64,000 bases of DNA from Candidatus Latescibacterota bacterium (GTDB lineage: Bacteria; Latescibacterota; UBA2968; UBA8231): assembly GCA_965261395.1 (NCBI GenBank), contig OZ253462.1:256001-320000 (forward strand), in the 5' to 3' direction. This document shows positions 14,670 through 59,551 of the stretch, piece after piece; the first letter of the stretch is position 1, and each line of letters starts with the position of its first letter. The translations under genes were made by a program, and so were the position numbers. A model generated the notes under the pieces. The model did no database searches. It had not been told where the DNA came from and saw nothing but the letters and a program-made list of their open reading frames with translations.

Positions 14670-14675
14670 AACAGG

Positions 14676-17225: not shown

Positions 17226-17232
17226 AAGACTT

Positions 17233-19243: not shown

Positions 19244-19400
19244 ACTCGCTTTCCGAAGTCCACTATTCGACTCTCAGGCTAAATTAATGACACGGCATGT
19301 CGGTGCAAGGATGATGACGAAGCGAATGGCGTGGCGCGCATCGCAATCGGCAAGCCGCCCGCGTCTTGCTCTCTCTACCACGCCCCGTATTTTACCCTAC

Positions 19401-20237
19401 ATGATCCGCAAGGTACAGTCCACCGCCATCGCCCTGCTCTTGGCAACCCATGCTAGTTGTCTGGCCCCGTCTGACGACGGCGCTGAACCCGCTGTCCTCC
19501 AACCGCAAAAGCCCGCTGAAATCCCTACGTATTCCTACCGAGTCGTCTGCGCCTTCCCTCACGACCCCACAGCCTTCACCCAAGGCCTGCTCTACGACAA
19601 CGGCTTCCTCTACGAAAGCACCGGCCAGTACGGCCAGTCAACCCTGCGCAAGGTCGAGCTCGAAACCGGGACCGTCGTGCAGATCCACCAGCTAGACGAG
19701 CGCTTCTTCGCCGAGGGACTTGCCCTCTTCGGCAATCGCCTCCTCCAGCTAACTTGGCGGGCCAACAAGGGCTTTGCCTATAATCTCGATTCATTTGAGC
19801 CGCTAGCGGAGTTCGCCTATCCCACCGAGGGCTGGGGGCTGACGTACGACGGCGAACTACTCGTTATGAGCGATGGCAGCGCGACCCTGTACTTCCGCGA
19901 TCCGTTTACCTTTGCCGAAGTGAGCCGGGTCGCTGTGGTGGCCCACGGCAGCCCCGTATCTCAGCTCAACGAACTCGAATGGGTCGCCGGCGAGGTCTTT
20001 GCCAATATCTGGCAGACCGACACCATTGCCCGCATCGACCCGGCGAGCGGCCAAGTCGCAGGGTGGATAGACCTGACCGGGCTGCTAAGCGACGCAGACC
20101 GCCGTGGCTCCAACGCCGAAGTGCTCAATGGCATTGCCTACGACCCCGAGGGCGAGCGGCTGTTCGTCACCGGCAAGTGGTGGCCCAAGCTCTACCAAAT
20201 CGAACTCGTATCCCCTTCACCAAGAGGTACCCCATGA
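19401..20237 (+). CDS. Glutaminyl-peptide cyclotransferase (lipoprotein-like)
   Basis: FPHDPTAFTQGL, ESTGQYGQS, FAEGL, EGWGLT, LNELEW, VLNGIAYD, VTGKWWP. Confidence 0.93.
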   Translation: MIRKVQSTAIALLLATHASCLAPSDDGAEPAVLQPQKPAEIPTYSYRVVCAFPHDPTAFTQGLLYDNGFLYESTGQYGQSTLRKVELETGTVVQIHQLDERFFAEGLALFGNRLLQLTWRANKGFAYNLDSFEPLAEFAYPTEGWGLTYDGELLVMSDGSATLYFRDPFTFAEVSRVAVVAHGSPVSQLNELEWVAGEVFANIWQTDTIARIDPASGQVAGWIDLTGLLSDADRRGSNAEVLNGIAYDPEGERLFVTGKWWPKLYQIELVSPSPRGTP

Positions 20238-45295: not shown

Positions 45296-45315
45296 TTCCA
45301 GCGAAGAATGCATCC

Positions 45316-46863
45316 ATGAACAAGCGCAGACTACCCATCGGCATTCAGACCTTCCGCGAGGTCCGCGAAGATACCTGCTACTACGTCGATAAAACCGCCT
45401 ACATCCGCCGGCTGCTCGACGAGGGTAAGCACTACTTCCTGTCGCGCCCACGGCGCTTTGGCAAGAGCCTATTCTTGGACACGCTCAAGGAAGTGTTCGA
45501 AGGCAACGAACCGCTGTTCGCGGGGCTGGACATTCACGACCGCTGGGATTGGTCGGTGCGTCATCCGGTGCTGCGGCTCGACTTCAGCAGTGGCACCTAC
45601 CAGGGGCCGGACGACTTGCGGAAGGAAGTGGCGGCGCAATTAAACACCTTGGAGGCCGAAGCGGAGATCGTCCCGCGCGACGACGAAGCGCCCGTCCGCT
45701 TCCGCCACTTGATGAAGGTGCTGCACGAGCGCAGCGGTCAGCGCGTTGCGGTGCTGGTCGATGAGTACGACAAGCCGATTCTCGATGCACTGGAAGTACC
45801 GGAGGTCGCCCGCGCCAACCGCGACTTTCTGCGCGGCCTGTATTCGACCGTGAAGTTTGCCGACGCGCACATCCGCTTCACGTTCATCACCGGGGTGAGC
45901 AAGTTTTCCAAGGTCAGCCTGTTTTCCGGCCTCAACAACCTCACCGATATCACCCTCGAACCCGAATACTCGGCCCTCTGCGGCTATACCGACGCCGATC
46001 TAGACGCCGTGTTCGCCCCGGAGTTGCCCGGCTTAGACCGGGACCAGATCCGCGACTGGTACAACGGTTATAGCTGGCTCGGCGACGAGAAGGTGTACAA
46101 CCCTTTTGACATCCTCCTGCTGTTTCGCCGCCGCCGATTCGCCGCCTATTGGTTTGAAACCGGCACTCCGACGTTTCTGATCGAAACGCTGTTCAAGCGC
46201 CGCGTCAGTTCCCTAGCACTCGATGAGATGGTCGGCAGCGACGAACTACTATCGACTTTTGATGTCGATGACATCGCAACCGAGGCACTGCTGTTCCAGA
46301 CCGGCTACCTGACGATAACCGACGAGGAAGACGTTGGCGGCGAGCCCGTCTATCGCTTGGGCTATCCCAACCGGGAGGTACGGCAGAGCCTGAACCGCAG
46401 CCTGCTGCGCTACTTGGTGCGCGATTCAACGCGGCAGATGGCCAACAGCGTGCAACTCTACCGGCTGCTGGAGGCTAACGACTTCGCCGGGCTGGAGACC
46501 CTGTTCCACGCCTTTTTCGCCAGCATTCCCTACGAGTGGTATTCCAACAACGACATCGCTAATTACGAGGGCTACTACGCCAGCGTGTTCTACTCCTATT
46601 TCGCGGGGCTGGGGCTGGACATCACAGTGGAGGACAGCAGCAGCCACGGACGCTTAGACATGGCGGTTCTATTCAATGGCAACATCTATCTATTTGAGTT
46701 CAAGGTGGTCGAGATGGCGTCTGCGGGTGCGGCGATGGCGCAGTTGCAGGAGCGGCGCTACGCGGACAAGTACCGCGCCTTGGGCCAGCCGATTTACCTG
46801 ATTGGCGTGGAGTTCAGCAAGGATGAGCACAACCTAGCGGCGTTTGAGGTGGAACGCGCCTGA
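45316..46863 (+). CDS. AAA-ATPase-like domain plus C-terminal PD-(D/E)XK nuclease protein
   Basis: LPIGIQTF, YYVDKT, SRPRRFGKSL (Walker A), LVDEYDKP (Walker B), YNPFD, GRLDM...IYLFEFK. Confidence 0.9.
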   Translation: MNKRRLPIGIQTFREVREDTCYYVDKTAYIRRLLDEGKHYFLSRPRRFGKSLFLDTLKEVFEGNEPLFAGLDIHDRWDWSVRHPVLRLDFSSGTYQGPDDLRKEVAAQLNTLEAEAEIVPRDDEAPVRFRHLMKVLHERSGQRVAVLVDEYDKPILDALEVPEVARANRDFLRGLYSTVKFADAHIRFTFITGVSKFSKVSLFSGLNNLTDITLEPEYSALCGYTDADLDAVFAPELPGLDRDQIRDWYNGYSWLGDEKVYNPFDILLLFRRRRFAAYWFETGTPTFLIETLFKRRVSSLALDEMVGSDELLSTFDVDDIATEALLFQTGYLTITDEEDVGGEPVYRLGYPNREVRQSLNRSLLRYLVRDSTRQMANSVQLYRLLEANDFAGLETLFHAFFASIPYEWYSNNDIANYEGYYASVFYSYFAGLGLDITVEDSSSHGRLDMAVLFNGNIYLFEFKVVEMASAGAAMAQLQERRYADKYRALGQPIYLIGVEFSKDEHNLAAFEVERA

Positions 46864-46870
46864 TATAGAT

Positions 46871-47818
46871 ATGCTGAACGAACTGCGCAAAATCCGCTAC
46901 GCCCGCTTCCGCCTAGAGATGACCGCAGCTAGCCAATTGCGGTTGCCTCCCTACAAGGGATCCACCTTTAGAGGGGCCTTTGGCCATACCTTCAAACAGC
47001 TAGTCTGTGTCAAGCGGGATCTGGACTGTTCCACCTGTCTGATCAGCGACCGGTGCGTGTATTACTATGTCTTCGAGACCCCGTCCAATAGTGAGGGAGA
47101 GAAGGACAGTCGCGGATATACCTTTGCGCCGCATCCTTTTGTGATTGAACCGCCCGAGGAAACGCGGGAAATCTACGAGCCGGGAGCCGAATTGCGGGTC
47201 GGACTGGTTTTGGTGGGGCGTGCCTTGGACTACCTGCCCTACTTCATCTACGCCTTTGAGGAAATGGGGCAGCGAGGGTTAGGGGCCGGGCGCGGCAAAG
47301 CTGCTTTGCAGCGAGTTATTGCCCTCGGTCCTGAGCCTAGCGACGATAGGTGCATCTATCAGACCGGTACTGGGCAACTGGAGCAGGACTATCCGGTCGG
47401 CGTTGGTGCGCCTGACACCGAGGCCGTTGGAACGCGGCTCCGGCTGCGGCTGCACACGCCGCTGCGGCTCAAGAACGAGGGGCGCTATACTCGCCAGCTT
47501 GACTTTTCTCTATTGGTGCGATCCTTGTTGCGGCGCGCTTCGGATCTGGCCCGCTTTCACTGCGGGGCTGAGCTGGACCTAGACTATCGGCAGTGGATTG
47601 AGCGGGCAGCCGGGGTATCGGCGGCGACGACACTGCGCTGGCACGACTGGGAGCGGTATTCGCAACGGCAGGATCGGAGAATGAAGTTAGGTGGCTTGGT
47701 CGGCGAAGTGGAATTCGCTGGTGAGTGGCAACCCTTCATGCCACTGTTGCGGCTGGGCGCGGATCTACACGTGGGCAAGGGGACGGGGTTTGGACTAGGA
47801 CGCTACGAGATTTTGTAA
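46871..47818 (+). CDS. cas6: CRISPR pre-crRNA processing endoribonuclease Cas6
   Basis: GSTFRGAFG, Cys cluster, PHPFVIEP, TPLRL, C-terminal Gly loop HVGKGTGFGLGRY. Confidence 0.92.
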   Translation: MLNELRKIRYARFRLEMTAASQLRLPPYKGSTFRGAFGHTFKQLVCVKRDLDCSTCLISDRCVYYYVFETPSNSEGEKDSRGYTFAPHPFVIEPPEETREIYEPGAELRVGLVLVGRALDYLPYFIYAFEEMGQRGLGAGRGKAALQRVIALGPEPSDDRCIYQTGTGQLEQDYPVGVGAPDTEAVGTRLRLRLHTPLRLKNEGRYTRQLDFSLLVRSLLRRASDLARFHCGAELDLDYRQWIERAAGVSAATTLRWHDWERYSQRQDRRMKLGGLVGEVEFAGEWQPFMPLLRLGADLHVGKGTGFGLGRYEIL

Positions 47819-47835
47819 AGGAGCAGGATGAAGAC

Positions 47836-49524
47836 ATGAAACACAAACTAATCGCTGTGATCGGCAACACACCGCAAGTTATGACAGAGACTTTCTGGGC
47901 ATTGCGTTTCCAACTCCATGTGCCCATTGATGAAGTATTTGTGATGACGACAACTATGGGTAAAGCAACCTGCCAGCAACGCCTTTTGGACGAAGGCCGA
48001 TTTGCAAAGATGTTGTCGGACTACGATATCGACCCCGATACGGCCAAGTTCGACGCCGATCATATCCGTGTATTTAAAGATGCCGAGGGCAATTTTTTAG
48101 ACGATATCCGCACCTCTGATGATAATCGCCTAGCCAGGAATCAACTTTTCCGCTGGATTGAGGATTGGACCCAGAAGGATCATGTCGCTTTACACTGCTC
48201 GCTTGCAGGCGGACGTAAGTCAATGGGATACTTGCTCGGTGCTGCTATTCAATTTTTTGGCCGCCCACAAGATCGCCTGTATCATGCGCTGGTTACACCG
48301 CCAGAGATTGAAATGAATCGCGATTTTTTCTTTCCACCTGTTCGTGAAACGCAAATCCCCACGTCAGACGGGCAACACATTTCTACTGCTGATGTGCGTA
48401 TTGAGTTGGCAGAGTTACCCTATGTATCGGTAAGAGATATATCCGTATTTGGCGATGAAAGCTACGACCGAATTCTACAGAGAACACAAGAAGAGGTGAG
48501 GCGTATTCCACGTCTAAGAGCAGAAAACAAGCGATTGAGAGAAACATCGAGTAATGCCGGTGGATTGATCGGAAACAGTGCTGCTATGCGGAAAACCAAA
48601 GAACAGATTCGGCAAGCTGCTGATGCAGATGATGCAACCGTATTGCTCTTGGGTGAAACGGGAACGGGAAAAGAACGCGCAGGTGAAGAACTGCATGAGC
48701 AGAGCACGAGAAAAGATCGACCATTCATACCGATTAACTGTAGTGCATTCCCGGATACACTTTTAGAGGCAGAGCTATTCGGTGCGACACGAGGTACTTA
48801 TACCGGACAAGCCGGGCCGCGTAAGGGTGCGTTTCGCATGGCCGAAGGCGGTATCCTTTTTCTCGATGAAATAGGAGAATTATCACGTGATGGGCAGGCG
48901 AGGCTGTTGCGCGTATTACAAGAAAAGAAAATGCGCGCGGTTGGCAGCGATGAACCGGAGAAAGACATTGATGTACGCATTGTTGCGGCGACCAATCGCG
49001 ACTTAGAATCCATGGTTCGAGAAGGGGCTTTCCGAGAGGACCTGTTGTATCGCCTCAATGCTTTGACCATTTACATGCCACCGTTGCGAGAACTACGCGA
49101 AGATATACCGGAGCTAATCGACCTGTTTTGTGAACAGTTTAATGAAAAATACAAACGCAATGTTGTGGGCTTTGATGCCTCAGCTATAGACGCTATGTGC
49201 CGCTATACCTGGCCGGGTAACGTGCGCGAGCTTGAAAATGAAGTTCAGCGTATCGTCATTGCCGCGCCTCCGGGTGCATTTCGAGTACACAAGGAAAACT
49301 TAGCCAAGCATATTATTGAATCGACAGATTTAGACACGGGTAGTGGTACGCTCAAAGAACAAGTGGCACAGTTTGAGAAGCAAAAAATTGAGGAAGCGTT
49401 GGCGCAAACTCAGGGCGAAAGAGGATCTGCCGCAGAGATACTGGGTATCGACCCTACAACGCTGGGTAGAAAAGCTGAAAAGTATGGCTTATCTCTAAAA
49501 AAGAGTCATAAGGATCGTGAGTGA
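47836..49524 (+). CDS. CARF (NE0113/Csx14-like) domain fused to sigma54 enhancer-binding AAA+ and Fis-type HTH
   Basis: N-term LIAVIGNTPQVMTETFWAL, MTTT, LDDIRT, LHCSLAGGRKSM, RPQDRLYHALV, FFFP; C-term GETGTGKE, EAELFG, GTYTGQ, LFLDEIGEL, AATNRDL, FREDLLYRL, WPGNVREL, AAEILGIDPTTLGRK. Confidence 0.88.
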   Translation: MKHKLIAVIGNTPQVMTETFWALRFQLHVPIDEVFVMTTTMGKATCQQRLLDEGRFAKMLSDYDIDPDTAKFDADHIRVFKDAEGNFLDDIRTSDDNRLARNQLFRWIEDWTQKDHVALHCSLAGGRKSMGYLLGAAIQFFGRPQDRLYHALVTPPEIEMNRDFFFPPVRETQIPTSDGQHISTADVRIELAELPYVSVRDISVFGDESYDRILQRTQEEVRRIPRLRAENKRLRETSSNAGGLIGNSAAMRKTKEQIRQAADADDATVLLLGETGTGKERAGEELHEQSTRKDRPFIPINCSAFPDTLLEAELFGATRGTYTGQAGPRKGAFRMAEGGILFLDEIGELSRDGQARLLRVLQEKKMRAVGSDEPEKDIDVRIVAATNRDLESMVREGAFREDLLYRLNALTIYMPPLRELREDIPELIDLFCEQFNEKYKRNVVGFDASAIDAMCRYTWPGNVRELENEVQRIVIAAPPGAFRVHKENLAKHIIESTDLDTGSGTLKEQVAQFEKQKIEEALAQTQGERGSAAEILGIDPTTLGRKAEKYGLSLKKSHKDRE

Positions 49525-49528
49525 ATGG

Positions 49529-49561
49529 CTGCAACCTTGCAGGGATTTCTGCAGAATTGCA
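49529..49561. promoter_or_regulatory. Tandem TGCA-N4-TGCA palindromes, candidate upstream activator sequences
   Basis: CTGCAACCTTGCAG (49529-49542) and TGCAGAATTGCA (49550-49561), centres 20 bp apart, about 130-150 bp upstream of the predicted sigma54 start site. Confidence 0.6.
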
Positions 49562-49660
49562 TGACTGAACATGTTGTCGTCCATTTCCTGTTTCAGGAAA
49601 ACATCGCACAACCTATTGTTTTTCTTGATCTTTGAGAAAATTCGAAGGTTTTTTTGTGTT

Positions 49661-49676
49661 TGGCACGGGGATTGCG
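49661..49676 (+). promoter_or_regulatory. Sigma54 (RpoN) -24/-12 promoter
   Basis: TGGCACG-GGGA-TTGCG matches the consensus TGGCACG-N4-TTGC; GG (49662-63) and GC (49674-75) are separated by exactly 10 nt; predicted +1 near 49687. Confidence 0.82.
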
Positions 49677-49740
49677 ACTGTATAAGCAAAAGGTGAACAG
49701 TTTCAGTAAATCCGCAGCAAACATTAAATGGAGGAACAAC

Positions 49741-50091
49741 ATGAACACTCTAATCAATCAGGGGGATGAGCAATATTATTCTCAGGCCGGTTTCTGGAAT
49801 AAGTTGCGCAACTTCGCACGTACCGCGGGTCGGGAAGTCGTCGAGCATGCCCTGTCGCTCTACTACACCGCACAGGATCCTAACACACCGGCCTGGGCCA
49901 AGACGGTTATCTACGGAGTGTTGGGGTACTTCATCCTGCCGGTCGATCTAATTCCCGACCTGATCCCAGTCGTCGGCTTCAGCGACGATTTGGCTGCGTT
50001 TGTCGCCGCACTCGCTACCGTGGGGATCCATGTGACGCCTGAGATTAAAAACCGCGCCAAGAAGAAAGCAGCCGAGTGGTTTGGTAAGTGA
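49741..50091 (+). CDS. YkvA / DUF1232 family small membrane protein
   Basis: FWNKL, TPAWAK, LGYFILPVDLIPDLIPVVGFSDD; RBS GGAGG. Confidence 0.9.
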   Translation: MNTLINQGDEQYYSQAGFWNKLRNFARTAGREVVEHALSLYYTAQDPNTPAWAKTVIYGVLGYFILPVDLIPDLIPVVGFSDDLAAFVAALATVGIHVTPEIKNRAKKKAAEWFGK

Positions 50092-50206
50092 GCAATGCAA
50101 GCAGAAGAGTTTTTAAGCATATTTATGAGTTTGGGTTGGCTCTGTACGTGGGCTAAGAGACGGGTTTGGGCTGGGATGCTACGGGATTTTATACAGGAGA
50201 AGGTTG

Positions 50207-52540
50207 ATGGTATCAAGAGACGCCCTAGTTGTCGGGGCCTTGCTGCACGATATAGGCAAATTTGAATTCAGGACATCGGACCGACGTACGCGCCACACCA
50301 CCTACGGGGATTTTTTTGTAGGCAAGTATCTGAGTCGTTTCCGCTGCTTGGAACCGATTCGGGAGGAGGTTCGCCGGTTGGTCGCCCATCACCACGATAG
50401 TGAGTTGGGTGATCCCTTTCTGCGGGAGGCCGACCATCTAGCGGCGGCGGATCGGCAGGTGGACGGCAGTCCCGAGACCCTGCGGTCGCTGGTGAGTATC
50501 CTGACCGCCGTGAACATTGGGAAGGGATCCTCACCACAGGATGTGCATCGGTATGCGCCGGGGCCGGTGGATTTTGCCAACCCCTTTCCCGAACACGTAT
50601 CAGGGGTCACGCCCGTCGAGTGGAAGCCCGACCGGGACCAAGCGCGAGACGAGCACGCCCGCGCTTGGGAGCAATTTTGCGCCGAGATCGGCACAATGCC
50701 CGATGGCGAGTTGGCGAGTTGGATTGAGACGTTCTTGGCGGTGGCTCGCAAGCATCTGAGTCGCGTGGCCTCGGCTGCCTACAAATCGCATCCAGATATT
50801 TCGCTCTACGATCACGCCCGCTCGGTGGCCGCCATTGCGGTGTGCCTACACGAGGCACATCAGCAAGCGGAGCCTTTCCTATTGATTCAGGGGGATATAT
50901 CGGGCGTTCAGTCCTTTCTCTATAAACTGGCTAGCCCAGCCGAAGAGGGAGGGACGAAAAATACCGCCAAGCGTTTACGGGGACGGTCGCTATTTCTAGT
51001 GCTACTAGCCGAGACCGTAGCACGTTATTACTTGCGTAAATTGAATTTGCCTCCGACCAACCTGCTGTACTGTGGCGGGGGGCACTTTTCGATCCTTGCG
51101 CCCCATACTGACGAGCTGAAAACCAAGCTGGCCGAGGCCGAAGAGCAGGTCAACCGCTGGTTGATCGACCAGCACCGGGGCGATCTGGCACTAGTGAGCG
51201 CAGCCACCTCGGCCGATAAGGAGTTGCTGGCCAATTTCCCTCGTTTGATGCAGCAATCGGGCTACGAGCTGGGCCGGGCCAAGCGGCAGAAATTCCGCTC
51301 CGTACTGGATGAGCGACTGTTCGCGTTGCCGGACTATGACCAGACCATGGACGTCTGCCCGGTATGCCAAGCTGATTTCGTCAAAGGCTCCGGGAAGACC
51401 TGTATGACCTGTAAACAACATGTGGAGACCGGGAGCCAAATCGTCCGGGCAGAGTTCTTGGTGCGGTTTGAAGGGGAAAATTTGGACGGGGAATTCGCCC
51501 AATTAGGTTTTGCTTGGGAATTGGCTGCCGACTGGAAAGAGGTTGTCCAGCTAGTAGGGGAAACCCCAGCCGAGCGCGTACATGTGGAACGGCTCAACCG
51601 CAGTGATTTCCTGACTCAGGCCGGCGCGGCCTTGGGTACGCGACATAGCCTCAGCTTCGGGTTCCGGCCACTCGGCCAGTACGCCCCCATTGACGAGCAA
51701 GAGAAGGGGCCGCTGGACTTTGAACACTTGGCCCAAATCAATAGTGAAAAATACCCGCTATTGGGAGTGGTACGCCTCGATGTCGATGCGCTGGGCGCAG
51801 TATTCGCTTCGGGGTTGGGGGAACAGCGATCTCTATCGCGCACAGCCACTTTGAGCCGCGAATTGGAGACCTTCTTCTCTGGCTATGTCAACACCTTGGC
51901 CAAAGATCATTATATGTACATCACCTACGCCGGAGGCGACGACCTGTTCGCCGTAGGCTCTTGGATCAACGCCCTTGAATTCAGTCGCGCCTTGCGGCGG
52001 GACTTTGGTCAGTTCAGCGGTGGCAATCCCAATCTGACCTTTTCCGGCGGTCTGTTTTTTTGCAAGCCGGATTTCCCCATCGGACGGGCTGCCGAAGCCG
52101 CTGGCAAACTGGAGAAGCGGGCCAAGGATTTCCCAGACAAGAATGCCGCCTGCCTGTTTGACGAAGAGGTCTCTTGGGAACGGCTCGACAAGTTGCTCGC
52201 CTTTGGCGACGAACTACTGTACTTGGTGACCGAAGCGGACCCAAACAACCGCTTGCCCCGCTCGTTTGTGCATCGTCTGTTGAGCTTGGGAGCCGAGCGC
52301 CGGTTGGCCCAAGAAGAAGGAAAATTAAAAGCCGAAATAAAAACTCAAATACAGCTCAAATATCTCGTAGCCCGACGCGGGGCCACCAGCAAGGCGATCA
52401 GCGACAATCAGGAGATGGAGGCAGACCGACGCAGAATAGGTGCCTTGGGACGACTGGTCAACGAGCCGGAATTGATGCGCCAGATCGCCGTACCTGCATC
52501 ATACGTACTGTACAAGACGCGAAACCTCAACACAGAGTAG
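50207..52540 (+). CDS. cas10: Type III-A Cas10/Csm1 with HD nuclease and intact GGDD cyclase motif
   Basis: GALLHDIGKF (HD), PDISLYDHAR, GDISGVQSFLY, LRGRS, CPVC..CMTC, RLDVDALG, YAGGDDLF. Confidence 0.96.
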   Translation: MVSRDALVVGALLHDIGKFEFRTSDRRTRHTTYGDFFVGKYLSRFRCLEPIREEVRRLVAHHHDSELGDPFLREADHLAAADRQVDGSPETLRSLVSILTAVNIGKGSSPQDVHRYAPGPVDFANPFPEHVSGVTPVEWKPDRDQARDEHARAWEQFCAEIGTMPDGELASWIETFLAVARKHLSRVASAAYKSHPDISLYDHARSVAAIAVCLHEAHQQAEPFLLIQGDISGVQSFLYKLASPAEEGGTKNTAKRLRGRSLFLVLLAETVARYYLRKLNLPPTNLLYCGGGHFSILAPHTDELKTKLAEAEEQVNRWLIDQHRGDLALVSAATSADKELLANFPRLMQQSGYELGRAKRQKFRSVLDERLFALPDYDQTMDVCPVCQADFVKGSGKTCMTCKQHVETGSQIVRAEFLVRFEGENLDGEFAQLGFAWELAADWKEVVQLVGETPAERVHVERLNRSDFLTQAGAALGTRHSLSFGFRPLGQYAPIDEQEKGPLDFEHLAQINSEKYPLLGVVRLDVDALGAVFASGLGEQRSLSRTATLSRELETFFSGYVNTLAKDHYMYITYAGGDDLFAVGSWINALEFSRALRRDFGQFSGGNPNLTFSGGLFFCKPDFPIGRAAEAAGKLEKRAKDFPDKNAACLFDEEVSWERLDKLLAFGDELLYLVTEADPNNRLPRSFVHRLLSLGAERRLAQEEGKLKAEIKTQIQLKYLVARRGATSKAISDNQEMEADRRRIGALGRLVNEPELMRQIAVPASYVLYKTRNLNTE

Positions 52541-52549
52541 GAGACCATC

Positions 52550-53008
52550 ATGGCTAACGAACACAGAGGAAGTGGGGGTGGAGGAGCCGACCGTCGGAGG
52601 GACCAGACCACCAGGGCTAACAAACAGCCCATTAATTTGGGCACCATTACTCCCCAGGAACTGAACCGCCGGGGTGAAGAGTTGGGCAAGGAACTGGCAA
52701 GGAACATTAAGGCCAACCAGATCCGCAATATCTACGGTGCGGTCCAGCACATTCGCGTCCGCGCGAGTCGGCCCCAACCCGATACCGAAGATATCAATCG
52801 CCGCCTGATCTTCCTCAAGCCAAAACTGGCCTATGCCAGTGGTCGGCAAAATAATTTGAGGGGCTTACGGGATGTATTGGTGGAGGCGATTGATAGCGTA
52901 GTACGAAGCGAAGACCCCCAAAAAGCGCAAAAAGCGCGGGATAACTTTTTCATCCTGATGGAATCTATCGTGGCCTACCACAAATTCTACGGCGGCAAAG
53001 ATTCGTAA
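52550..53008 (+). CDS. csm2: Type III-A small subunit Csm2
   Basis: NQIRNIY, LKPKLAYASGR, MESIVAYHKFYGG. Confidence 0.93.
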   Translation: MANEHRGSGGGGADRRRDQTTRANKQPINLGTITPQELNRRGEELGKELARNIKANQIRNIYGAVQHIRVRASRPQPDTEDINRRLIFLKPKLAYASGRQNNLRGLRDVLVEAIDSVVRSEDPQKAQKARDNFFILMESIVAYHKFYGGKDS

Positions 53009-53030
53009 ACCATAGGAGAACAGTACCATT

Positions 53031-53852
53031 ATGGCTCAATTTATTGGCAATATCATTATGCGCGGCAAAATCGAGTGCCTCACCGGTCTGCACATTGGGG
53101 CGGGCAAGGACACTGCCGAGATCGGCGGAGTCGATAGCCCGGTAGTGCGCGACCCCCATAGCCGCCGGCCCTATATCCCTGGCTCTTCCCTCAAAGGCAA
53201 GATGCGTTCCATGCTGGAGTTCGCTACGGGCAAAGTGAAGGATGGCAAGGTGCATACTTGTAACGAGGCCCGCTGCGAGGTGTGTCGGCCTTTTGGGTCG
53301 TCGGCCGCAGATGCGCGCAAATGCGGTCCCACGCGGCTGTTGGTAAGGGACGCCTATCCCGACGAGCAGACCCAAAGCATGTGGGAGAATCTGAGTACCG
53401 ACTTACTCTACGCGGAGATGAAATCGGAAAACTTTTTGGATCGCATCACTTCGGCGGCCAATCCCCGTTTCATCGAGCGGGTGGTCAAGGGATCGTGCTT
53501 CAATTTGGAAATGATCTATGGAGTCTATCAGGTGGACGGCGTCAACGACCTCGACTTTTTCGCCCATGTAGTGACCGCGCTGCGCCTGCTTGAAGACGGC
53601 ACCTTGGGCGGCAACGGCAGCCGAGGCTACGGCCAGATACGCCTGAAGCTGGCCGACCCTGTTTTCTTAAGTGGGCAAGACTACTGCGAAGGTAGCGATG
53701 CCTGGAAACAAGCCCGTCAGTGGCCAGCCGACGAAGCCATTGTGCGGGGCATGGGTGACTTCTCGTTGAACCGAGAGGATGCTACCTGCCAATCATGGGA
53801 TGAGATAATGAAGTCGCCAGAGGACGAGGTGGGCAAAGAGGGGCATGGATGA
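53031..53852 (+). CDS. csm3: Type III-A RAMP Csm3
   Basis: LTGLHIG, IGGVDSPVVRDP (catalytic Asp retained), PYIPGSSLKGKMRS, ANPRFIERV, LGGNGSRGYG. Confidence 0.95.
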   Translation: MAQFIGNIIMRGKIECLTGLHIGAGKDTAEIGGVDSPVVRDPHSRRPYIPGSSLKGKMRSMLEFATGKVKDGKVHTCNEARCEVCRPFGSSAADARKCGPTRLLVRDAYPDEQTQSMWENLSTDLLYAEMKSENFLDRITSAANPRFIERVVKGSCFNLEMIYGVYQVDGVNDLDFFAHVVTALRLLEDGTLGGNGSRGYGQIRLKLADPVFLSGQDYCEGSDAWKQARQWPADEAIVRGMGDFSLNREDATCQSWDEIMKSPEDEVGKEGHG

Positions 53853-54814
53853 AAGCGATCTATCTGCAATCCCGAGGGGCCTATCGCAACGAGCTGCATT
53901 CGGACACCCTATTCGGACTGATTTGCTGGGCGATCCGTCAGGTCTTTTCGGAGGCGAGGTTGGTGGAGTTGCTAAAAGCCTTTTATGCTGGCCAGCCCCC
54001 CTTCCTGCTTAGCTCAGCTTTCCCCTGCGCCAAAGACGGCACCGCCGTCTGGAAGCCCTTTTTGCCTCGTCCGTTGCTTCCACCTCCGGCGCCTGTGGAA
54101 GATCTGAGCCCCGAAGAAGCTCAGCGGCTCAAACGGTACAAGCGGCTCCGCTATATTCCCGCCGATCACTTCAATCAATTTTTGCAGGGCGACTATTCGG
54201 AGGGTTCGTATTATGAGTCCGATGTCTGGGAAAAAACTACGGTGCCGATTCCCCGGCGTACTGACCGCTTGCATGGCACCATTGATCGATTGAGCGGCAC
54301 TACCGATGGAGAGGGCACACTGTTCTCCGAGCCCGAATACCGGACGGACGGACTCTACTTCTTGCTCGACGGGGAAGAAGCCGAACTAGTGGAAAACGCG
54401 CTCCGTTTTCTGGAGGATTTCGGCTGGGGTGGAGGCAATAGCGTGGGCTATGGCCACTTTGCTGCGACCGTAGGTGAAAGCCCGCTCGCCGTCGCCGTCT
54501 CTGCGCCGGATCGCTTTATCACCCTGTCCCTGTACCATCCTCGATCCGACGAACTCGCGCATTTCAAAACTGGGGAAGCGTGGTACGAGTTGGTGGTTCG
54601 CAAGGGCAAGGTGGGCGGCCACTTCCTCCAAACGGGCGACTTTTGGAAGCGCTCGGTATTGATGTTTGCTCCCGGCTCGACCTTCCCAGCGATGGCGGAA
54701 AAGCAAGTGTACGGACGCAATCCCATTGTAAAGGGGCGGAAGGACGGGCTACCCTTCGACGTGCAGCAATTCGGCTATGCCCTTGCCGTGGGCATGAAAA
54801 CGGCCAGAGAGTAG
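53849..54814 (+). CDS. csm4: Type III-A RAMP Csm4
   Basis: HSDTLFG, LSSAFP, GWGGGNSVGYG, ITLSLYHP, MFAPGSTF. Confidence 0.92.
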   Translation: MKAIYLQSRGAYRNELHSDTLFGLICWAIRQVFSEARLVELLKAFYAGQPPFLLSSAFPCAKDGTAVWKPFLPRPLLPPPAPVEDLSPEEAQRLKRYKRLRYIPADHFNQFLQGDYSEGSYYESDVWEKTTVPIPRRTDRLHGTIDRLSGTTDGEGTLFSEPEYRTDGLYFLLDGEEAELVENALRFLEDFGWGGGNSVGYGHFAATVGESPLAVAVSAPDRFITLSLYHPRSDELAHFKTGEAWYELVVRKGKVGGHFLQTGDFWKRSVLMFAPGSTFPAMAEKQVYGRNPIVKGRKDGLPFDVQQFGYALAVGMKTARE

Positions 54815-54819
54815 AAATT

Positions 54820-56562
54820 ATGGAACGAAGAGTGCAGTGTCTGTCGCCGGTACACATTGGCACGGGTAAGGAACTAGAACCTTTCGACTATATCGTGGAT
54901 GGCCAACGCTATATTCGCGTCCACTTGGATGCAGTCCTCGAACGGATGACGACCGAACAAGTGGACGATCTGGCTGCCTGGGTGAGCGAGCGGGCTGACC
55001 AGATGGTAGAACTGGGAAGGAAGCAAAGCGATGATATCCGGCGGGAGATGCAGCTATCGAACTTCCCCGGCGCTGATGTCGCGTTACGGGAGGCTCTTCG
55101 AACGGACTCAGCCCTAGCTCGCTACCACGGCAATAAGGGATTTGATCGCAATTTGCAGGTGCGAGAGCAGGTCAAAGATGCCGATGAGACGCCTCTCATT
55201 CCGGGCAGTTCGCTCAAGGGTGCTCTGCGTACGGCCCTCGCTTTTGCCGCTTTGGAGGAAATGGAACTGGCCGAGCGGGAGGCGTTGAGACAGTCGCTTG
55301 AACGACGACTGAACGAGAGAGGCCCTCGTCTGCAAGAACGTATCGGCCAAGAGATAGAACAGGCCGTCTTCCGCTGTGGGAAGGAGCAGAGGGGGCGCAC
55401 TAGCTATGGAGACATCCACTACGACTTGATGAGGGCAGTCTCCGTCTCGGACACGTACGATGCCCAAGCGGAATTGATCGTGCCGCAGATATACACCTTT
55501 GTCGAGTCGCGCACCCGGGAGGGAAATACCAGACTCGCCGCCCAAGCGCCGCTTATCGTCGAAGCGCACGCACCGGGCAATATCTTCAGTCTGCGTCTGC
55601 GGATTGACGGTGGTCTCCTGCGGGCGATTAGTCAGAATGGTCGCAGAGGCGAGTGGATCAACTTTGAGCAACGGGTGCAGCGGGCCTTTGGCTCTGAGGT
55701 GGCGCGGCTGTTGCCGGGAGCATCGGACGAGCAAGTGGAGCAGGCCGTGGTAGGCCGGCTCGAAGCCGCGGCGCGGAGCTTTGCCAAGGCAATCGTGTCG
55801 GCTGAACAGGGCTGGGAGGAAGCACACGGGCACAGTTCCCGCGATCTAAAGGACTTTTACAATCGGCTAGACGACCTGATAGGAAAGGGATTGGTGCCGC
55901 TGCGGTTGGGCTGGGGCAGTCACTTTATGGCCACTACTTTGTTGCTGGCGCTCAAAGAGGATGCGGGCTGGCGTCCTATACTGGAAAGGTGCTTCCGGGC
56001 GTTTGATATAGGCGTTCCTCCAGGACGACATAGAGATAGGGGCAGAGATTCGGAGCGCCAAATTGAGCTCGACGACTTCCCCCGCTCCCGTCGGCTGGTT
56101 GCGGCCGGAAGGAGGCCTGTAGCCCCCTTGGGCTGGATCGCATTAGTGCCTACAGTGGAAGAGTTGCCCGGACCGCTGGTGGAAAAGGAGCGGCTGCTCG
56201 CCCGAACTCAGGAGAGCGAACCTAGGCGAGGGGAAAGGCCACAGGCGGACAGATATAGAGATGGGCGCGGCGGGCGCAGCGAGCCGGGACCGGCTCCACG
56301 CCCCGAACGACCTCTCCCGCAGATCAAGCTTCCGAAGCCTGCCTCGAAACCGCCGCCCCGCCAAGGGTCTCGGCCGGGCGACCGAGTCAATGTGGAAATC
56401 GTGGCCAACGACAACGCTCAGGTTACGGTAAAAGTGCTGGACGGTCAGGGCGAGGAGGTGCGGTTCCGGCAGCCTTACTATCCGGGCCGACCTGGAGAAA
56501 AGAGAAAGATGAAGGTCAGAGCAGTGGACTCCCAAGGCAAGATCACGCAGGTGGCCCCTTGA
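54820..56562 (+). CDS. csm5: Type III-A RAMP Csm5 with C-terminal extension
   Basis: LSPVHIGTG, IPGSSLKGALRTA, VSVSD, LRLGWGS, PLGWI, followed by a Pro/Arg-rich linker and a beta-rich tail. Confidence 0.9.
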   Translation: MERRVQCLSPVHIGTGKELEPFDYIVDGQRYIRVHLDAVLERMTTEQVDDLAAWVSERADQMVELGRKQSDDIRREMQLSNFPGADVALREALRTDSALARYHGNKGFDRNLQVREQVKDADETPLIPGSSLKGALRTALAFAALEEMELAEREALRQSLERRLNERGPRLQERIGQEIEQAVFRCGKEQRGRTSYGDIHYDLMRAVSVSDTYDAQAELIVPQIYTFVESRTREGNTRLAAQAPLIVEAHAPGNIFSLRLRIDGGLLRAISQNGRRGEWINFEQRVQRAFGSEVARLLPGASDEQVEQAVVGRLEAAARSFAKAIVSAEQGWEEAHGHSSRDLKDFYNRLDDLIGKGLVPLRLGWGSHFMATTLLLALKEDAGWRPILERCFRAFDIGVPPGRHRDRGRDSERQIELDDFPRSRRLVAAGRRPVAPLGWIALVPTVEELPGPLVEKERLLARTQESEPRRGERPQADRYRDGRGGRSEPGPAPRPERPLPQIKLPKPASKPPPRQGSRPGDRVNVEIVANDNAQVTVKVLDGQGEEVRFRQPYYPGRPGEKRKMKVRAVDSQGKITQVAP

Positions 56563-56579
56563 ACGGACAAAGGAAGACA

Positions 56580-56732
56580 ATGGATTATCAGCATATCATC
56601 ACCATTGAACCTGGCAAGCGCAGTGGTACGCCGTGTATTCGCGGCATGAGGATTACCGTCTATGATGTGCTTGACTATCTCGCCTCGGATATGTCCGTCG
56701 AAGAGATGAGGACGTCGGTACCACAACGCTAA
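56580..56732 (+). pseudogene. Truncated DUF433 family (antitoxin-like) protein, 50 aa, absent from the ORF track
   Basis: Translates as MDYQHIITIEPGKRSGTPCIRGMRITVYDVLDYLASDMSVEEMRTSVPQR*; the DUF433 core is present but the usual C-terminal helix is missing. Confidence 0.75.
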
Positions 56733-56813
56733 TCGAGTATCGGTATCCAACAGCAGACCTGATCGGTAGAGGGTTAAATCGAATATACACCGATCAATGA
56801 TAGGAGACTTATC

Positions 56814-57950
56814 ATGCGTTTCGTTCTGTCAACCGTTGGCACAAGCATCCTGACAAATCTCATTGATAACAGCAATCCTGACGAATCTATCTGGCGGAAT
56901 AGATTGCGGGATTCGGCGAATCTCAAACAGGGCGAACTAGAACCGGAAACTGAGACGGCGATCAATACACTTTCTGACCGGGCACTCGAAAAACTGATGC
57001 AAGATGATGCCGAAATCAACCGCCGAATTAGTGCCGAGTTGAACGGCATTTACGGTATCTACGGAAGTCAATTGCCTAAAAACAGCCCCGATGAGCACTA
57101 TCTCATCTGCACCGACACCGCACAGGGGCAGAAGACGGGCGAACTGATTGAGGATTTCCTTGGAGGGATGGGATTTAGGGTAGGAATCGTCACGCCTCCT
57201 CGGCTTTCGACACAAGATCCAGAATCCTTCACCACAGGCACGAAGGAACTCATTAAGTGGCTGGAGGACAACGTGCCGTGGCGACGTGATAGTGGCTATC
57301 GCGTGATTTTCAATCTGGTTGGCGGCTTCAAAAGTCTGCAAGGTTACATGAATACTTTCGGTGCATTTTACGCTGATGAGGTGATATACATCTTTGAGGC
57401 ACCAACCGCTGACTTAATCAAGATTCCGCGCCTGCCAATTCAGATTGACACCACCGTGGTTGAAAACCATCGGATGCAATTTGCATTGATGGATGCTGGA
57501 AAACTGTATCCGATTGAGGAACTCGAAGGTATCCCAGAAACGCTGCTTGAATTCGTAGAAGATAATGGCGTGAATTATGGGGGATTATCGGCGTGGGGAC
57601 AGTTGATCTGGAACCGAACGAAATCGGATCTATTGATAGATGCGTTATTGCCATTTCCACGATTGACATACGAGCAAGACTTCATCAACGACTGCGAGAC
57701 TTTGCACAACAAGCAACGCATTGATCTTCAAGAGACTTTAGCGAAGATCGCCGCCGTGCTCGAAGATAGCAGCGGCAACATAACACTGCTTAATAAGAGA
57801 ATTTCTGGACTGAACTTTGAAAAACTTCAAAATCTTGATATCTATACATTCCGTATTACTCTTGCCTACCGCGTCAGTTGCAAGGTTTCTAGAGATACAT
57901 TAATCCTTCGGCGCTATGGCGTTCATGACTACGTGTACCAAAATCCATAG
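56814..57950 (+). CDS. cami1: CARF (APE2256/Crn1-like)-wHTH-RelE effector, Cami1-like
   Basis: LSTVGTSILTN, SAELNG, TDTAQG, FNLVGGFKS, YIFE...LIKIPRLPI; C-terminal RelE-like FEKL...YTFRITLAYRV...LRRYGVHD. Confidence 0.8.
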   Translation: MRFVLSTVGTSILTNLIDNSNPDESIWRNRLRDSANLKQGELEPETETAINTLSDRALEKLMQDDAEINRRISAELNGIYGIYGSQLPKNSPDEHYLICTDTAQGQKTGELIEDFLGGMGFRVGIVTPPRLSTQDPESFTTGTKELIKWLEDNVPWRRDSGYRVIFNLVGGFKSLQGYMNTFGAFYADEVIYIFEAPTADLIKIPRLPIQIDTTVVENHRMQFALMDAGKLYPIEELEGIPETLLEFVEDNGVNYGGLSAWGQLIWNRTKSDLLIDALLPFPRLTYEQDFINDCETLHNKQRIDLQETLAKIAAVLEDSSGNITLLNKRISGLNFEKLQNLDIYTFRITLAYRVSCKVSRDTLILRRYGVHDYVYQNP

Positions 57951-58026
57951 GAAACATGGGTTGAACTCCAGGAGGACGCCCAGCTACGCGCCTATCGGGC
58001 ACTCGAATTTTCCAAGGGGTATCGCC

Positions 58027-59058
58027 ATGCCCACCCTGTACGTCACAGAACCCAGATCGGTCGTCCGGCGTTCGGTCGGCTCCGTCGTGGTAACGCTCAA
58101 CGAGGACCCCGACGGGCCGGGGCCACTGCCCGAACGCCAGCGGCGCTTGCTCGAAGTCGAGCCACATCGGCTGGAACTGATCGCCCTGGTAGGCCGCGTT
58201 CATATCACCGCAGACGCGCTCCAACTTTGCTTGGAGCAGGGCATTGCGGTCGCTTGGTTGCAGGCGAATGGGAATTTTATGGGCCGTCTCGTGCCGGAGT
58301 TGTCGCGCACGGCCGATCTGCGTTTGGCGCAGTTCCGCATGGCCGACGACGAGCCGCAGGCGCTGGCACTGGCTCAGACCTTTGTCGCAGCCAAGCTCCA
58401 CAATGCGGTTGGCCTGCTGACGGCTTTGCGCTCCAATCGCCGCAGCCAGCCTGCTTTGGGACGGGCCATCGGGGAACTCAGGGCCATGGCCGATACCGTG
58501 GCGCAGGCGACTAGCCGGGAGGTGCTACTGGGCTATGAGGGCGATGCGGCCCGGCGCTACTTTGCGGGGCTGCGGCTCGGTTTCACGGGTGCCATCGGCT
58601 TTGACGGCCGTGCTCGTCGGCCACCGCCGGACCCGGCCAATGCCTTGCTGTCGTTCGGCTATGTGTTGCTGGCTAATGTACTGGCGAGTCTGCTGGAGGC
58701 CTGCGGCTTCGATCCCTACTTGGGCTTTATGCACACAGTCCGTTCTGGGCGGCCCAGTTTGGCACTCGACCTTTTGGAGGAATTGCGGCATCCGGTCGTG
58801 GATCGCTTTGTGCTGCGGGTGTGCAATCGGGGACAATTGCGTCCCGAGCATTTTGAGACTGATGCCGAACGGGGCGGTGTGCGCCTCACCCGTGCAGGTA
58901 TGCGAATTTTCTTTCGCACTTGGGAAGCCTTTATGGACGCTCCACTGCCGGGGATTGGCACAGAGATGTCACCAGAAGAATTGCTTCGCCGTCAGGTTGA
59001 TCGTCTAGCGGCCCACGTGCGAGATCAAGCGCCATACCAACCCTTGCTTCTACGCTGA
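58027..59058 (+). CDS. cas1: CRISPR integrase Cas1
   Basis: TLYVTE, LLGYEGDAARRYF, RRPPPDPANALLSFGY, DPYLGFMH, LALDLLEELR. Confidence 0.96.
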   Translation: MPTLYVTEPRSVVRRSVGSVVVTLNEDPDGPGPLPERQRRLLEVEPHRLELIALVGRVHITADALQLCLEQGIAVAWLQANGNFMGRLVPELSRTADLRLAQFRMADDEPQALALAQTFVAAKLHNAVGLLTALRSNRRSQPALGRAIGELRAMADTVAQATSREVLLGYEGDAARRYFAGLRLGFTGAIGFDGRARRPPPDPANALLSFGYVLLANVLASLLEACGFDPYLGFMHTVRSGRPSLALDLLEELRHPVVDRFVLRVCNRGQLRPEHFETDAERGGVRLTRAGMRIFFRTWEAFMDAPLPGIGTEMSPEELLRRQVDRLAAHVRDQAPYQPLLLR

Positions 59059-59070
59059 GGAGGCTTGCCT

Positions 59071-59358
59071 ATGTCCCGCTTTGTTGTGTGCTACGATATA
59101 GCCGACAATAAACGCCGCTATAAGGTGGCCGCCTGCCTAGATGGGTATGGCGACCGCGTACAGGGCAGCGTATTCGAGTTGCGGGTCGAGCGCACCCTTC
59201 TCGACCGATGCTTAGACGAGGTATCCGGCCTGATCGATGCGGCTGAGGACAGCGTGGTCGTCTATCGCCTTTGCGCGGCCTGCGAGAAAGAGCGGGTTTA
59301 TTGGGGCGTAGGCGAACAGGTTGCCCATATTGGCGAGGAAGATGTATTTATCGCATGA
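59071..59358 (+). CDS. cas2: CRISPR-associated Cas2
   Basis: VVCYDIADNKRR, YGDRVQGSVFE, DSVVVYRLCAAC. Confidence 0.95.
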   Translation: MSRFVVCYDIADNKRRYKVAACLDGYGDRVQGSVFELRVERTLLDRCLDEVSGLIDAAEDSVVVYRLCAACEKERVYWGVGEQVAHIGEEDVFIA

Positions 59359-59551
59359 ACAGTCGTAACCTCGGATGGCCCGTCAATTTCCTTGGAGTTA
59401 CGAATTTGGCTAACCGATTGAAATTACTGCAATTCGGCATTACCTGCCGGATCGGAGACAGCCGTGATAGGTGTCGTTGGCCGCTCTGGCCATTGGGTTA
59501 CGAAAAGTGTTCCCGCAACCTATTGCAAGACAAGGAAAACTATGGCATACT
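59359..59551 (+). promoter_or_regulatory. CRISPR leader
   Basis: Non-coding region between cas2 and the first repeat, containing repeated GTTACGA motifs and IHF-like sites. Confidence 0.75.

Follow-up and report, generated by a model that had tools for sequence, protein, structure and literature searches.

A CARF5 sigma-54 activator and its enhancer-promoter cassette at a type III-A CRISPR locus of Latescibacterota: a candidate cyclic oligoadenylate-gated switch

Introduction

The stretch of DNA described in this work, referred to as the window, comprises 64,000 nucleotides (nt) from Candidatus Latescibacterota bacterium (assembly GCA_965261395.1, contig OZ253462.1, positions 256,001 to 320,000 of the forward strand). 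Within its 44-64 kb region lies a complete type III-A CRISPR-Cas locus with every gene on the (+) strand. One of these genes encodes a 562-amino-acid (aa) protein in which a CARF domain of the Cas_NE0113 (CARF5) family is joined to the AAA+ module of sigma-54 activators and to an HTH_8 domain. A sequence-only reading of the window had proposed that cyclic oligoadenylate (cOA), made by Cas10 upon target detection, activates this protein, which would then drive RpoN-dependent transcription of ykvA and possibly of the Csm complex and its effector, forming a positive-feedback loop triggered by infection. In this paper, we follow up that proposal through the protein, the DNA downstream of its gene, and relatives within the phylum and beyond it.

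The Activator Gene and Its Downstream Region

The features on which the proposal rests are the following.

47836-49524, (+) strand: CARF(Cas_NE0113/CARF5)-AAA+-HTH_8 activator, 562 aa (Pfam, NCBIfam, PADLOC)
49530-49541, (+) strand: palindrome 1, TGCAACCTTGCA, of the form TGCA-N4-TGCA
49550-49561, (+) strand: palindrome 2, TGCAGAATTGCA, of the form TGCA-N4-TGCA, 20 nt from palindrome 1, start to start
49566-49655, (+) strand: A/T-rich conserved block between the presumed enhancer and the promoter
49661-49676, (+) strand: sigma-54 promoter TGGCACGGGGATTGCG (TGGCACGgggaTTGCg), TGGCACG-N4-TTGC, 10 of the 11 specified bases
49741-50091, (+) strand: ykvA (DUF1232), 116 aa, first gene past the promoter (Pfam DUF1232, 50 bits)
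50204-52540, (+) strand: cas10/csm1 (TIGR02578, 550 bits), HD at residue 15 and GGDD at residue 577

The type III-A set is complete: cas10/csm1 with both HD and GGDD, csm2-5, cas6, cas1-cas2 and a CRISPR array. The Cas10 palm domain occurs once in the host genome, in this locus. The layout given by the sequence-only reading was recovered throughout, namely the CARF-AAA+-HTH gene at 47836, the pair of phased palindromes, the near-perfect sigma-54 promoter, the intact GGDD of Cas10, and the order ykvA-cas10-csm2-5-DUF433-cami1 on one strand, with every element in its place.

The 216-nt spacer between the stop codon of the activator gene and the ATG of ykvA holds the whole control region. The palindrome pair (49530-49561) is presumed from its sequence to be the upstream activating sequence bound by HTH_8. 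This double palindrome has a single copy in the 6,549,484-base genome, at this locus, with 0.007 expected. The sigma-54 promoter has its GG at 49662-3 and its GC at 49674-5, which places the expected transcription start at about 49687, and it is followed by a ribosome-binding site and the ATG of ykvA (49741). The motif TGGCAC-N5-TTGC by itself occurs 23 times in the genome, where about 15 copies are expected, and so is no rarity. Our guess for the A/T-rich block is a DNA-bending (IHF-like) site; the exact IHF consensus was tried by eye and matched only in part. A sigma-54 promoter at the CRISPR leader was also considered and rejected, as 45001-64000 holds no further motif with at least 10 of 11 bases. 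No Rfam family was matched over 49450-50300.

In three public runs (X1, X5, X6), DNA contigs have a different sequence of 108 letters where the window has the 124 bases of 49594-49717. This interval takes in the A/T-rich block, the sigma-54 promoter and the first part of the leader, so the promoter segment varies among related strains.

The Activator Protein and Its CARF Sensor

Judged from its domains, the 562-aa protein is a sigma-54 enhancer-binding protein with a Cas_NE0113 (CARF5) regulatory domain. Pfam finds Cas_NE0113 (PF09623, 124 bits), Sigma54_activat (PF00158, 207 bits, positions 1-167 of 168), AAA_lid_14 and HTH_8 (43.8 bits), and the NCBIfam model TIGR02584 (cas_NE0113; cut-off 80.65 bits) reaches 176.6 bits, with positions 2-206 of its 209 aligned. 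PADLOC splits the protein in two: residues 1-227 match CARF5--CARF (238.6 bits), and residues 222-552 match RtcR_PspF2--CARF_AAA_HTH (332 bits), the latter over profile positions 150-480 of 481 only. Among the PADLOC matches to the activator there is no model that combines CARF5 with an AAA-HTH output; the CARF models of PADLOC seem to be named after the 2020 CARF classification. The NCBIfam RtcR model NF038308 reaches 294 bits against a cut-off of 650, over residues 221-525 only, and Pfam reports no RtcR domain at E <= 0.01. Since the RtcR models cover only the AAA+-HTH half and the NCBIfam one stays below its cut-off, the activator is not an RtcR; by its profile matches it looks like an RtcR/PspF-type output module bearing a canonical CRISPR CARF domain. 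The full-length model has a predicted local distance difference test score (pLDDT) of 77.7 and a predicted template modelling score of 0.47, and the long helix (residues 210-237) that joins CARF to AAA+ is of low confidence.

The CARF domain itself is modelled as a Rossmann-like fold with a pLDDT of 88.4. Its best Foldseek matches are the CARF domain of Cad1 with cyclic tetra- and hexa-adenylate (cA4/cA6; E = 1e-6), followed by the cA4 ring nucleases Sis0455 and Sso2081 and then by Csm6, Cam1, Can2, Csa3 and Card1, so that the top matches are without exception CARF proteins, cOA binders. Two motifs, TPQ(V/I)xTE after strand 1 and S-x-AGGRK after strand 4, are invariant or nearly so in 16 fused and non-fused relatives, and both map to the predicted two-fold dimer interface. 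The predicted dimer scores 0.78 against 0.01 for the best control, with at least 90% of contacts shared between runs and a partner pLDDT of at least 87; the mark applied to this score is passed by 20 of 30 solved homodimers and by 1 of 23 monomers. Solved CARF dimers already exist, so the pass may mirror likeness to them.

We take Csx20 to be a member of the NE0113 family, and the current NCBIfam name of TIGR02584, ring nuclease, agrees with that equation. Csx20 has been shown to degrade cA4 (PMC12409355). The 2014 CARF survey places NE0113 with the CARF families that have no effector domain and may act as transcription regulators (PMC4012209). We infer that cOA is the ligand of the activator and that the control is positive, and the CARF domain may provide a ring-nuclease reset.

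Relatives Within the Phylum

The phylum set comprised 168 genomes, which were searched with the CARF part of the activator alone. Matches were found in 22 of them; in 12, counting the host, the open frame is 560-636 aa long. Another fusion is cut by a contig end (G155), and one match at a contig end (G123) is unjudgeable. The other CARF-matching genomes hold non-fused forms or fragments of 24-56 residues. In a wider protein search, about 100 clusters among the best 120 listed combine Cas_NE0113 with Sigma54_activat (with or without HTH_8), at identities from 100% down to 42%, so homologues of the architecture on which the sequence-only reading relied do exist; Candidatus Poribacteria appears as the label on one partial member of one fusion cluster. 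A single rpoN gene is present in the host, as that reading needed, and rpoN occurs in 162 of the 168 genomes, all 12 with the fusion among them.

The spread of the activator is patchy. Only 3 of 30 genomes of the host genus have a CARF match, homologues 79-83% identical over the full length occur in another family of the class, and the region of the activator gene is lower in G+C (48%) than the genome (59%). Taken together, these traits fit a mobile module. Short fragments of the activator were also seen: its first 24-25 residues, at 79-92% identity, lie in small open reading frames (ORFs) at G074:C84:12080-12154, G077:C29:47140-47211, G089:C1:5221050-5221121 and G084:C1:5246765-5246836. These may be scars of lost or recombined copies.

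Sixteen neighbourhoods were compared by means of tblastn with the window proteins, a sigma-54 motif scan (threshold of at least 10 of 11 bases), and a simple ORF picker with clustering. In all 12 fusion loci (the window and L106-L116), a sigma-54 motif lies on the same strand 136-279 nt past the activator stop. Five of them (L109, L110, L112, L113 and L114) have a second copy of the promoter about 1.2-1.4 kb further on, giving 17 promoters in total; 6 additional motif matches lie elsewhere in the fusion loci. None of the four loci with a non-fused CARF gene (L117, L119, L120, L121) has the motif. Locus L118, where a contig end truncates the fusion, likewise lacks it, although the downstream stretch needed for a judgement is missing there.

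One architecture is common to the 17 promoter regions: TGCA-N4-TGCA palindromes, two or three in number, a conserved block (TTGAACAT...TTTCCTGTTTCA...ATCACACAACCTGTTGTTTTT) and a -24/-12 element. Relative to the -24 element, the palindromes stand at about -132/-111 or at -201/-182/-111. Allowing at most one mismatch, 55 such palindromes were counted in the 17 upstream regions of 260 nt, against 110 in 229,590 nt elsewhere in the loci (0.12 per 260 nt), which is an enrichment of about 25-fold. The fusion gene and this enhancer-promoter region strictly co-occur, and the cassette is portable between CRISPR modules. It precedes type III-A, III-B and III-D-like modules. Behind ykvA stand the Csm genes (III-A) in the window, Cmr2/Cmr3 (III-B) in L109 and L110, a cold-shock-domain/RAMP fusion with a short Cas10-like protein in L108, L111 and L113, and other RAMP-rich modules in L112, L114 and L115.

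Of the 17 promoters, 8 have ykvA as the first gene behind them (those of the window, L108 and L111, plus the second ones of L109, L110, L112, L113 and L114) and another 8 have cas6 (those of L107, L115 and L116, plus the first ones of the same five loci); in L106 it is an FGE-sulfatase gene. The cas6 cluster of the relatives was named through the window copy (Pfam CRISPR_Cas6, PADLOC Cas6). The direct targets foreseen by the sequence-only reading thus need amending: ykvA and cas6 are the ones conserved in that role, and in the window cas6 lies upstream of the activator, outside the cassette. The ykvA gene is 68-93% identical to that of the window in 9 of 11 related loci. A cas10-type gene lies downstream in 11 of the 12 fusion loci, and in the twelfth (L116) the contig ends 1.3 kb past the promoter, so the anticipated linkage of the homologues to both cas10 and a downstream -24/-12 element was found.

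Two loci are of particular value for the extent of the controlled unit. L107, which is without ykvA, reads promoter-cas6-cas10-csm2-csm3-csm4-csm5-CARF gene with gaps of at most 62 nt. In L115, cas6 overlaps ykvA by 8 nt, a CARF gene follows 22 nt on and a cas10-like gene 75 nt on. These gap-free operons argue for dependence of the whole operon on the promoter, and control of an entire type III operon is best supported, as far as gene order can tell, in L107 and L115.

Further observations concern individual relatives. In L111 (G142, host genus), ykvA, cas1 and cas2 are 93%, 95% and 97% identical to those of the window, whereas the activator is only 47% identical and the effector complex differs, being III-D-like with the cold-shock-domain/RAMP fusion; the modules next to the promoter cassette have been reshuffled. 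An EcsC-family gene (PADLOC candidate PDC-S29, 290 bits) adjoins ykvA or cas10 in L111 (5027-5656) and L112 (oriented 16590-17222), and in a type III-B locus of an Allochromatium vinosum plasmid (L202:8290-8922) such a gene lies directly upstream of a non-fused NE0113 gene. L117 (oriented 893-2524; G004) encodes a 543-aa protein with an N-terminal NE0113 CARF and a C-terminal half unlike the AAA+ module; it adjoins a cas10 apparently split into ORFs of 411 and 390 aa.

Relatives Beyond the Phylum

A metagenome scan with a CARF-only alignment gave 534 confirmed loci, of which 80 were kept. The NE0113 CARF gene is not fused to AAA+ in 79 of these, is mostly of 350-400 aa, and in many cases lies near cas6 and cas10. 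A same-strand sigma-54 motif directly downstream is absent from all 79 non-fused loci, and ykvA is absent from all 80.

The sole fused case, L163 from sediment, encodes a 568-aa protein with Cas_NE0113, Sigma54_activat, AAA_lid_14 and HTH_8. Its region 2531-19811 holds a type III-A operon, a CARF gene, the CARF-type enhancer-binding protein and then a sigma-54 motif, with the promoter TGGCATagtgtTTGCA (TGGCATAGTGTTTGCA) 92 nt past the activator stop (motif at 11796) and upstream repeats that differ from those of the phylum. Past the promoter come an ORF of about 45 aa that is hydrophobic, a DUF4258 gene, cas8 (CXXC_CXXC), cas7 (DevR), cas5, cas3, cas4 and cas1. These genes are a type I cassette, and the locus is an independent instance of the fusion with a sigma-54 promoter beside cas genes, on a single contig. 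It may represent cross-talk from type III to type I through sigma-54.

All 10 plasmid records found with the CARF search are annotated as ring nuclease (9 as 'ring nuclease Csm6'), and the one examined (H1) is non-fused. The CARF alignment fitted 36 stretches of viral contigs to a pattern, none of which encodes a relative. With the full-length alignment, 80 matches in genome contigs were generic sigma-54 activators only, none covering the CARF domain; 79 begin at query residue 192 or later and one (L037) at residue 107. The common form of NE0113 protein (L122-L201, L119-L121) has about 350-400 aa with a C-terminal part of about 150 aa without a Pfam domain; cas6 very often lies directly upstream, and the name given by PGAP is 'ring nuclease Csm6'. 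A protein-cluster search with YkvA returned DUF1232/YkvA clusters only, without a functional lead, and a literature search for DUF1232 with CRISPR found nothing relevant.

Transcription from ykvA into cas10

The spacer between ykvA and cas10 (50092-50203) has 112 nt. No terminator-like or sigma-70-like site was found in it by simple scans, and it folds no better than shuffled sequence (z = 0.20). Thus, the terminator that the sequence-only reading could not see by eye was not found by these scans either, and the separate promoter that it had named as a danger to the proposal did not appear. Additionally, the metatranscriptome library X20 holds a 710-nt contig, about 95% identical to 49550-50240, that spans ykvA and reaches 37 nt into cas10; its source is a related strain rather than that of the window, and contigs of this kind cannot show a start site. 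The library has zero cover in 48272-49339, in 50408-51475 and in several later bins, and these gaps in cover are uninformative on expression. Co-transcription of ykvA and cas10 in the window is suggested by these data, and we infer the extent of the transcript beyond that point.

Other Genes of the Locus

Upstream and downstream of the genes listed above, the window holds the following features.

45316-46863, (+) strand: AAA-ATPase_like + PDDEXK_9 gene (Pfam PF09820, 215 bits; PF08011, 74 bits)
46844-47818, (+) strand: cas6, endonuclease processing CRISPR RNA (Pfam CRISPR_Cas6, 76.6 bits; PADLOC Cas6, 367 bits)
52550-53008, (+) strand: csm2 (Pfam, NCBIfam)
53031-53852, (+) strand: csm3 (Pfam, NCBIfam)
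53849-54814, (+) strand: csm4 (Pfam, NCBIfam)
54820-56562, (+) strand: csm5, with a probable ATG at 54820 judged from the translation (Pfam, NCBIfam)
56559-56732, (+) strand: small DUF433 gene (Pfam PF04255, 55 bits)
56814-57950, (+) strand: presumed CARF-RelE effector, Cami1-like (Pfam Cas_APE2256; PADLOC CARF7--CARF_RelE, 424.9 bits, positions 3-358 of 359)
57916-59058, (+) strand: cas1 (Pfam, NCBIfam)
59065-59358, (+) strand: cas2 (Pfam, NCBIfam)
59552-64000, (+) strand: CRISPR array, 58 copies of a 37-nt repeat, reaching the end of the window

The AAA-ATPase_like + PDDEXK_9 gene opens the upstream block that leads into cas6 and the activator, and it also lies upstream in L106 and L111. Its summed contig depth is several-fold above that of its neighbours in all four runs compared, with many partial contigs and joints, as expected of a multi-copy family in these communities. 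The cas6 gene ends 17 nt upstream of the activator gene, outside the sigma-54 cassette. YkvA has a hydrophobic core at about residues 50-100, according to its hydropathy. The CARF-RelE protein combines an APE2256-type CARF with a C-terminal RelE-like domain over the full PADLOC profile, so the earlier label cami1 is reasonable; its CARF part matches APE2256-family chains of the PDB, and it is presumed from its domains to be the cOA-activated effector of the locus. Within the array, adjacent repeat-spacer units at 61632-61785 are 99% identical, which indicates a duplicated spacer.

Interpretation and Alternatives

We consider that a cOA-gated CARF5 sigma-54 activator switches on ykvA and probably cas10-csm2-5 and CARF-RelE, and we assign to this interpretation a probability of roughly 0.55; it is supported as far as sequence can take it. 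The Csm complex would bind target RNA, and Cas10 with its intact GGDD would make cyclic oligoadenylate, most likely cA4, which would bind the CARF dimer. Ligand binding might then free or assemble the AAA+ ring, held by HTH_8 on the two TGCA-N4-TGCA sites, and the ring would remodel RpoN-RNA polymerase at 49661-49676. Transcription would enter ykvA and probably run onward through cas10-csm2-5 and CARF-RelE, while in relatives a second copy of the cassette would drive cas6 too. As to the transcriptional part of the earlier proposal, the promoter does precede ykvA; co-transcription of ykvA and cas10 is suggested in the window, and the case for a whole operon is strongest in L107 and L115.

Several observations weigh against this interpretation. 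The sigma-54-contacting (L1) loop of the activator is GTYTGQ at residue 320, with 3 of 6 residues identical to the canonical GAFTGA: the T, the G and an aromatic residue are kept, and the two Ala are replaced. The gene calls of the relatives come from the simple ORF picker, and their labels rest on tblastn and on Pfam matches of representative members. Between ykvA and the first effector-complex gene, L109, L110, L112 and L113 have 229-816 nt, which leaves room for separate promoters; the gap of L109 holds a short unannotated ORF of 87 aa. In L106 (host genus; oriented 4613-16742; record strand -), ykvA is missing and 12.5 kb separate the promoter from cas10, with genes for an FGE-sulfatase, an ankyrin-repeat protein, a protein kinase, a DUF4407 protein, a ClpB-like AAA protein and a radical-SAM protein in the interval, which looks like an insertion or rearrangement behind the promoter. 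The X20 contig begins at 49550, just past the activator stop and 137 nt upstream of the expected start, and so is no evidence of a sigma-54 start; its origin may be read-through past the activator stop, possibly supplying a basal level, or DNA in the library. Finally, tight control is the norm for sigma-54 promoters, and the genome has a single cas10, so that a loop in which this gene depended wholly on its own product could never get going. The idea of another type III system as the source of cOA was dropped, since only one Cas10 palm domain is found in the genome. The positive feedback proposed earlier, in its pure form, would therefore need basal expression from another source.

In a different account, the activator controls short units only (ykvA in the window; in relatives, cas6 as well), a constitutive promoter of their own serves the Csm genes, and YkvA, a small membrane protein, is an effector deployed by transcription or an accessory protein. 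With a single cas10 in the genome, sensing would require constitutive Csm expression. The account also draws on the tie between ykvA and the fused activator (9 of 11 related loci against none of the 80 metagenome NE0113 loci), on the better conservation of ykvA (68-93%) than of the activator (46-83%), on gaps past ykvA that range from 112 nt in the window to 816 nt in L109, and on L163, where the hydrophobic peptide of about 45 aa and the DUF4258 gene come first after the promoter. It does not sit well, however, with the gap-free cas6-cas10-csm operon past the promoter of L107, which lacks ykvA, nor with L115, where ykvA and cas6 overlap and gaps of no more than 22 and 75 nt lead to the CARF and cas10-like genes. 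The spacer 50092-50203 is free of promoter- and terminator-like sites, and the RNA-library contig that bridges ykvA and cas10 points, weakly, in the same direction. We regard this account as possible, though doubtful.

The signal might also be something other than type III cOA, as RtcR provides a precedent: this known CARF-type enhancer-binding protein is reported to respond to damaged tRNA, with binding of RtcA and RtcB by its CARF domain (PMC7790460, PMC9650030). The AAA+-HTH half of the window protein is best matched by the PADLOC RtcR_PspF2 profile, and RNases of the locus (Csm3, CARF-RelE) would yield such RNA ends. We find this unlikely, because the RtcR-type models match the AAA+-HTH part only, while the sensor is Cas_NE0113/CARF5 over its full length, shares identical pocket motifs with non-fused type III relatives, and has cA4/cA6 binders as its nearest folds. 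Another idea, that the fusion no longer activates sigma-54 and is only a DNA-bound ring nuclease or repressor, is drawn from the degenerate loop GTYTGQ and seems very improbable to us. A Phe-to-Tyr change in the GAFTGA loop is tolerated in PspF. The loops of the relatives are GAYTGQ in close ones and GAFTGA-like (GAFTGA, GAFTDA, NAFTGA) in the clade at 46-48% identity, and near-perfect promoters beside both kinds argue that the loop works: a -24/-12 element stands beside the gene in all 12 loci, including all 7 with a GxYTGQ-type loop. Walker A (GETGTGKE at 273) and Walker B (ILFLDE at 340) are likewise intact.

Returning to the cOA-gated activator, a fuller version can be put forward tentatively, as a serious prospect that we nevertheless rate below even odds. 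According to it, the locus would confer self-inducing immunity, in which cA4 made by the earliest few Csm complexes acts through the CARF5 activator to raise cas6, and with it the maturation of CRISPR RNA, the effector complex, CARF-RelE and YkvA, with YkvA as an effector deployed by transcription and not by allostery, a ring-nuclease-type CARF that resets the response, and a cassette that is portable as a whole.

Relation to Known Systems

RtcR has the three-part architecture of the window protein, with an N-terminal domain of the CARF superfamily, AAA+ and HTH, and it is a sigma-54 activator of the rtcBA RNA-repair operon. The sensor of the window protein is canonical Cas_NE0113/CARF5, whereas the CARF of RtcR is divergent, and the neighbours of the window gene are cas6, ykvA and cas10-csm, not rtcBA, a comparison made at the level of the locus, as no genome-wide search for rtcBA was made. 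The 2014 survey lists RtcR and RtcR-like CARF-NtrC-type activators without CRISPR linkage (PMC4012209).

Csa3 is a cA4-binding transcription factor of type I-A loci, composed of CARF and a winged HTH, and a link from type III to type I has been reported for it (PMC8844856, PMC8699464). It resembles the present case in that a CRISPR signal sensed by CARF leads to transcription of cas genes, and L163 would likewise link type III to type I. In contrast, Csa3 has no ATPase and works in one step at sigma-70/archaeal-type promoters, while the window protein has AAA+ and a Fis-type HTH_8 and would act with RpoN, from an enhancer at a distance, as an off-by-default switch. Another route from the type III signal to transcription through an alternative sigma factor is CalpL-CalpT-CalpS, in which a cA4-activated SAVED-Lon protease is reported to free an extracytoplasmic function (ECF) sigma factor (PMC12751052, bioRxiv 2024.05.08.593097). 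There the sensor is of the SAVED type and an anti-sigma factor is proteolysed to release the ECF sigma factor; the window has CARF fused to a sigma-54 activator.

The ring nucleases of the Csx20/Cas_NE0113 group share the CARF family with the activator according to profile hidden Markov models, and Cad1 (a CARF-adenosine deaminase) is among the nearest folds. These proteins stand alone or have enzymatic or unassigned C-terminal domains, in contrast to the AAA+-HTH output of the window protein. A sigma-54 promoter at a CRISPR-associated operon has been described in Myxococcus xanthus, where MXAN7280 depends on Nla28 (PMC9765219); Nla28 differs in being a starvation-response regulator encoded elsewhere, without CARF and without a link to cOA. 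The 2025 CRISPR classification names transcriptional regulators among cOA effectors without detail (PMC12669027). The sequence-only reading knew of no sigma-54 activator with this type of CARF in a type III locus, and our literature search agrees with it: no paper was found on a fusion of Cas_NE0113/CARF5 with a sigma-54 activator in a CRISPR locus, although the 2020 CARF classification and supplementary files, which lay outside the search, may hold an entry.

Significance

Signalling by type III systems is known mainly as allosteric activation of ready-made effectors; on the transcriptional side, Csa3 and the CalpL/T/S cascade have been described to date. If cOA gates the sigma-54 activator, this would open a third route, tightly off and ATP-dependent, which would place cas genes, including cas6, under the alarm signal. 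This bears on the ways in which cells keep down the cost and autoimmunity risk of type III systems, on the amplification and reset of the response, and on whether one CRISPR type can arm another. The cassette is compact, with one gene and about 150 nt of further DNA, and could find use as a genetic switch that responds to cA4. If the fuller version is true, a cassette standing before III-A, III-B, III-D-like and, in L163, type I modules would be a bacterial, ATP-driven counterpart of the archaeal Csa3 cross-talk.

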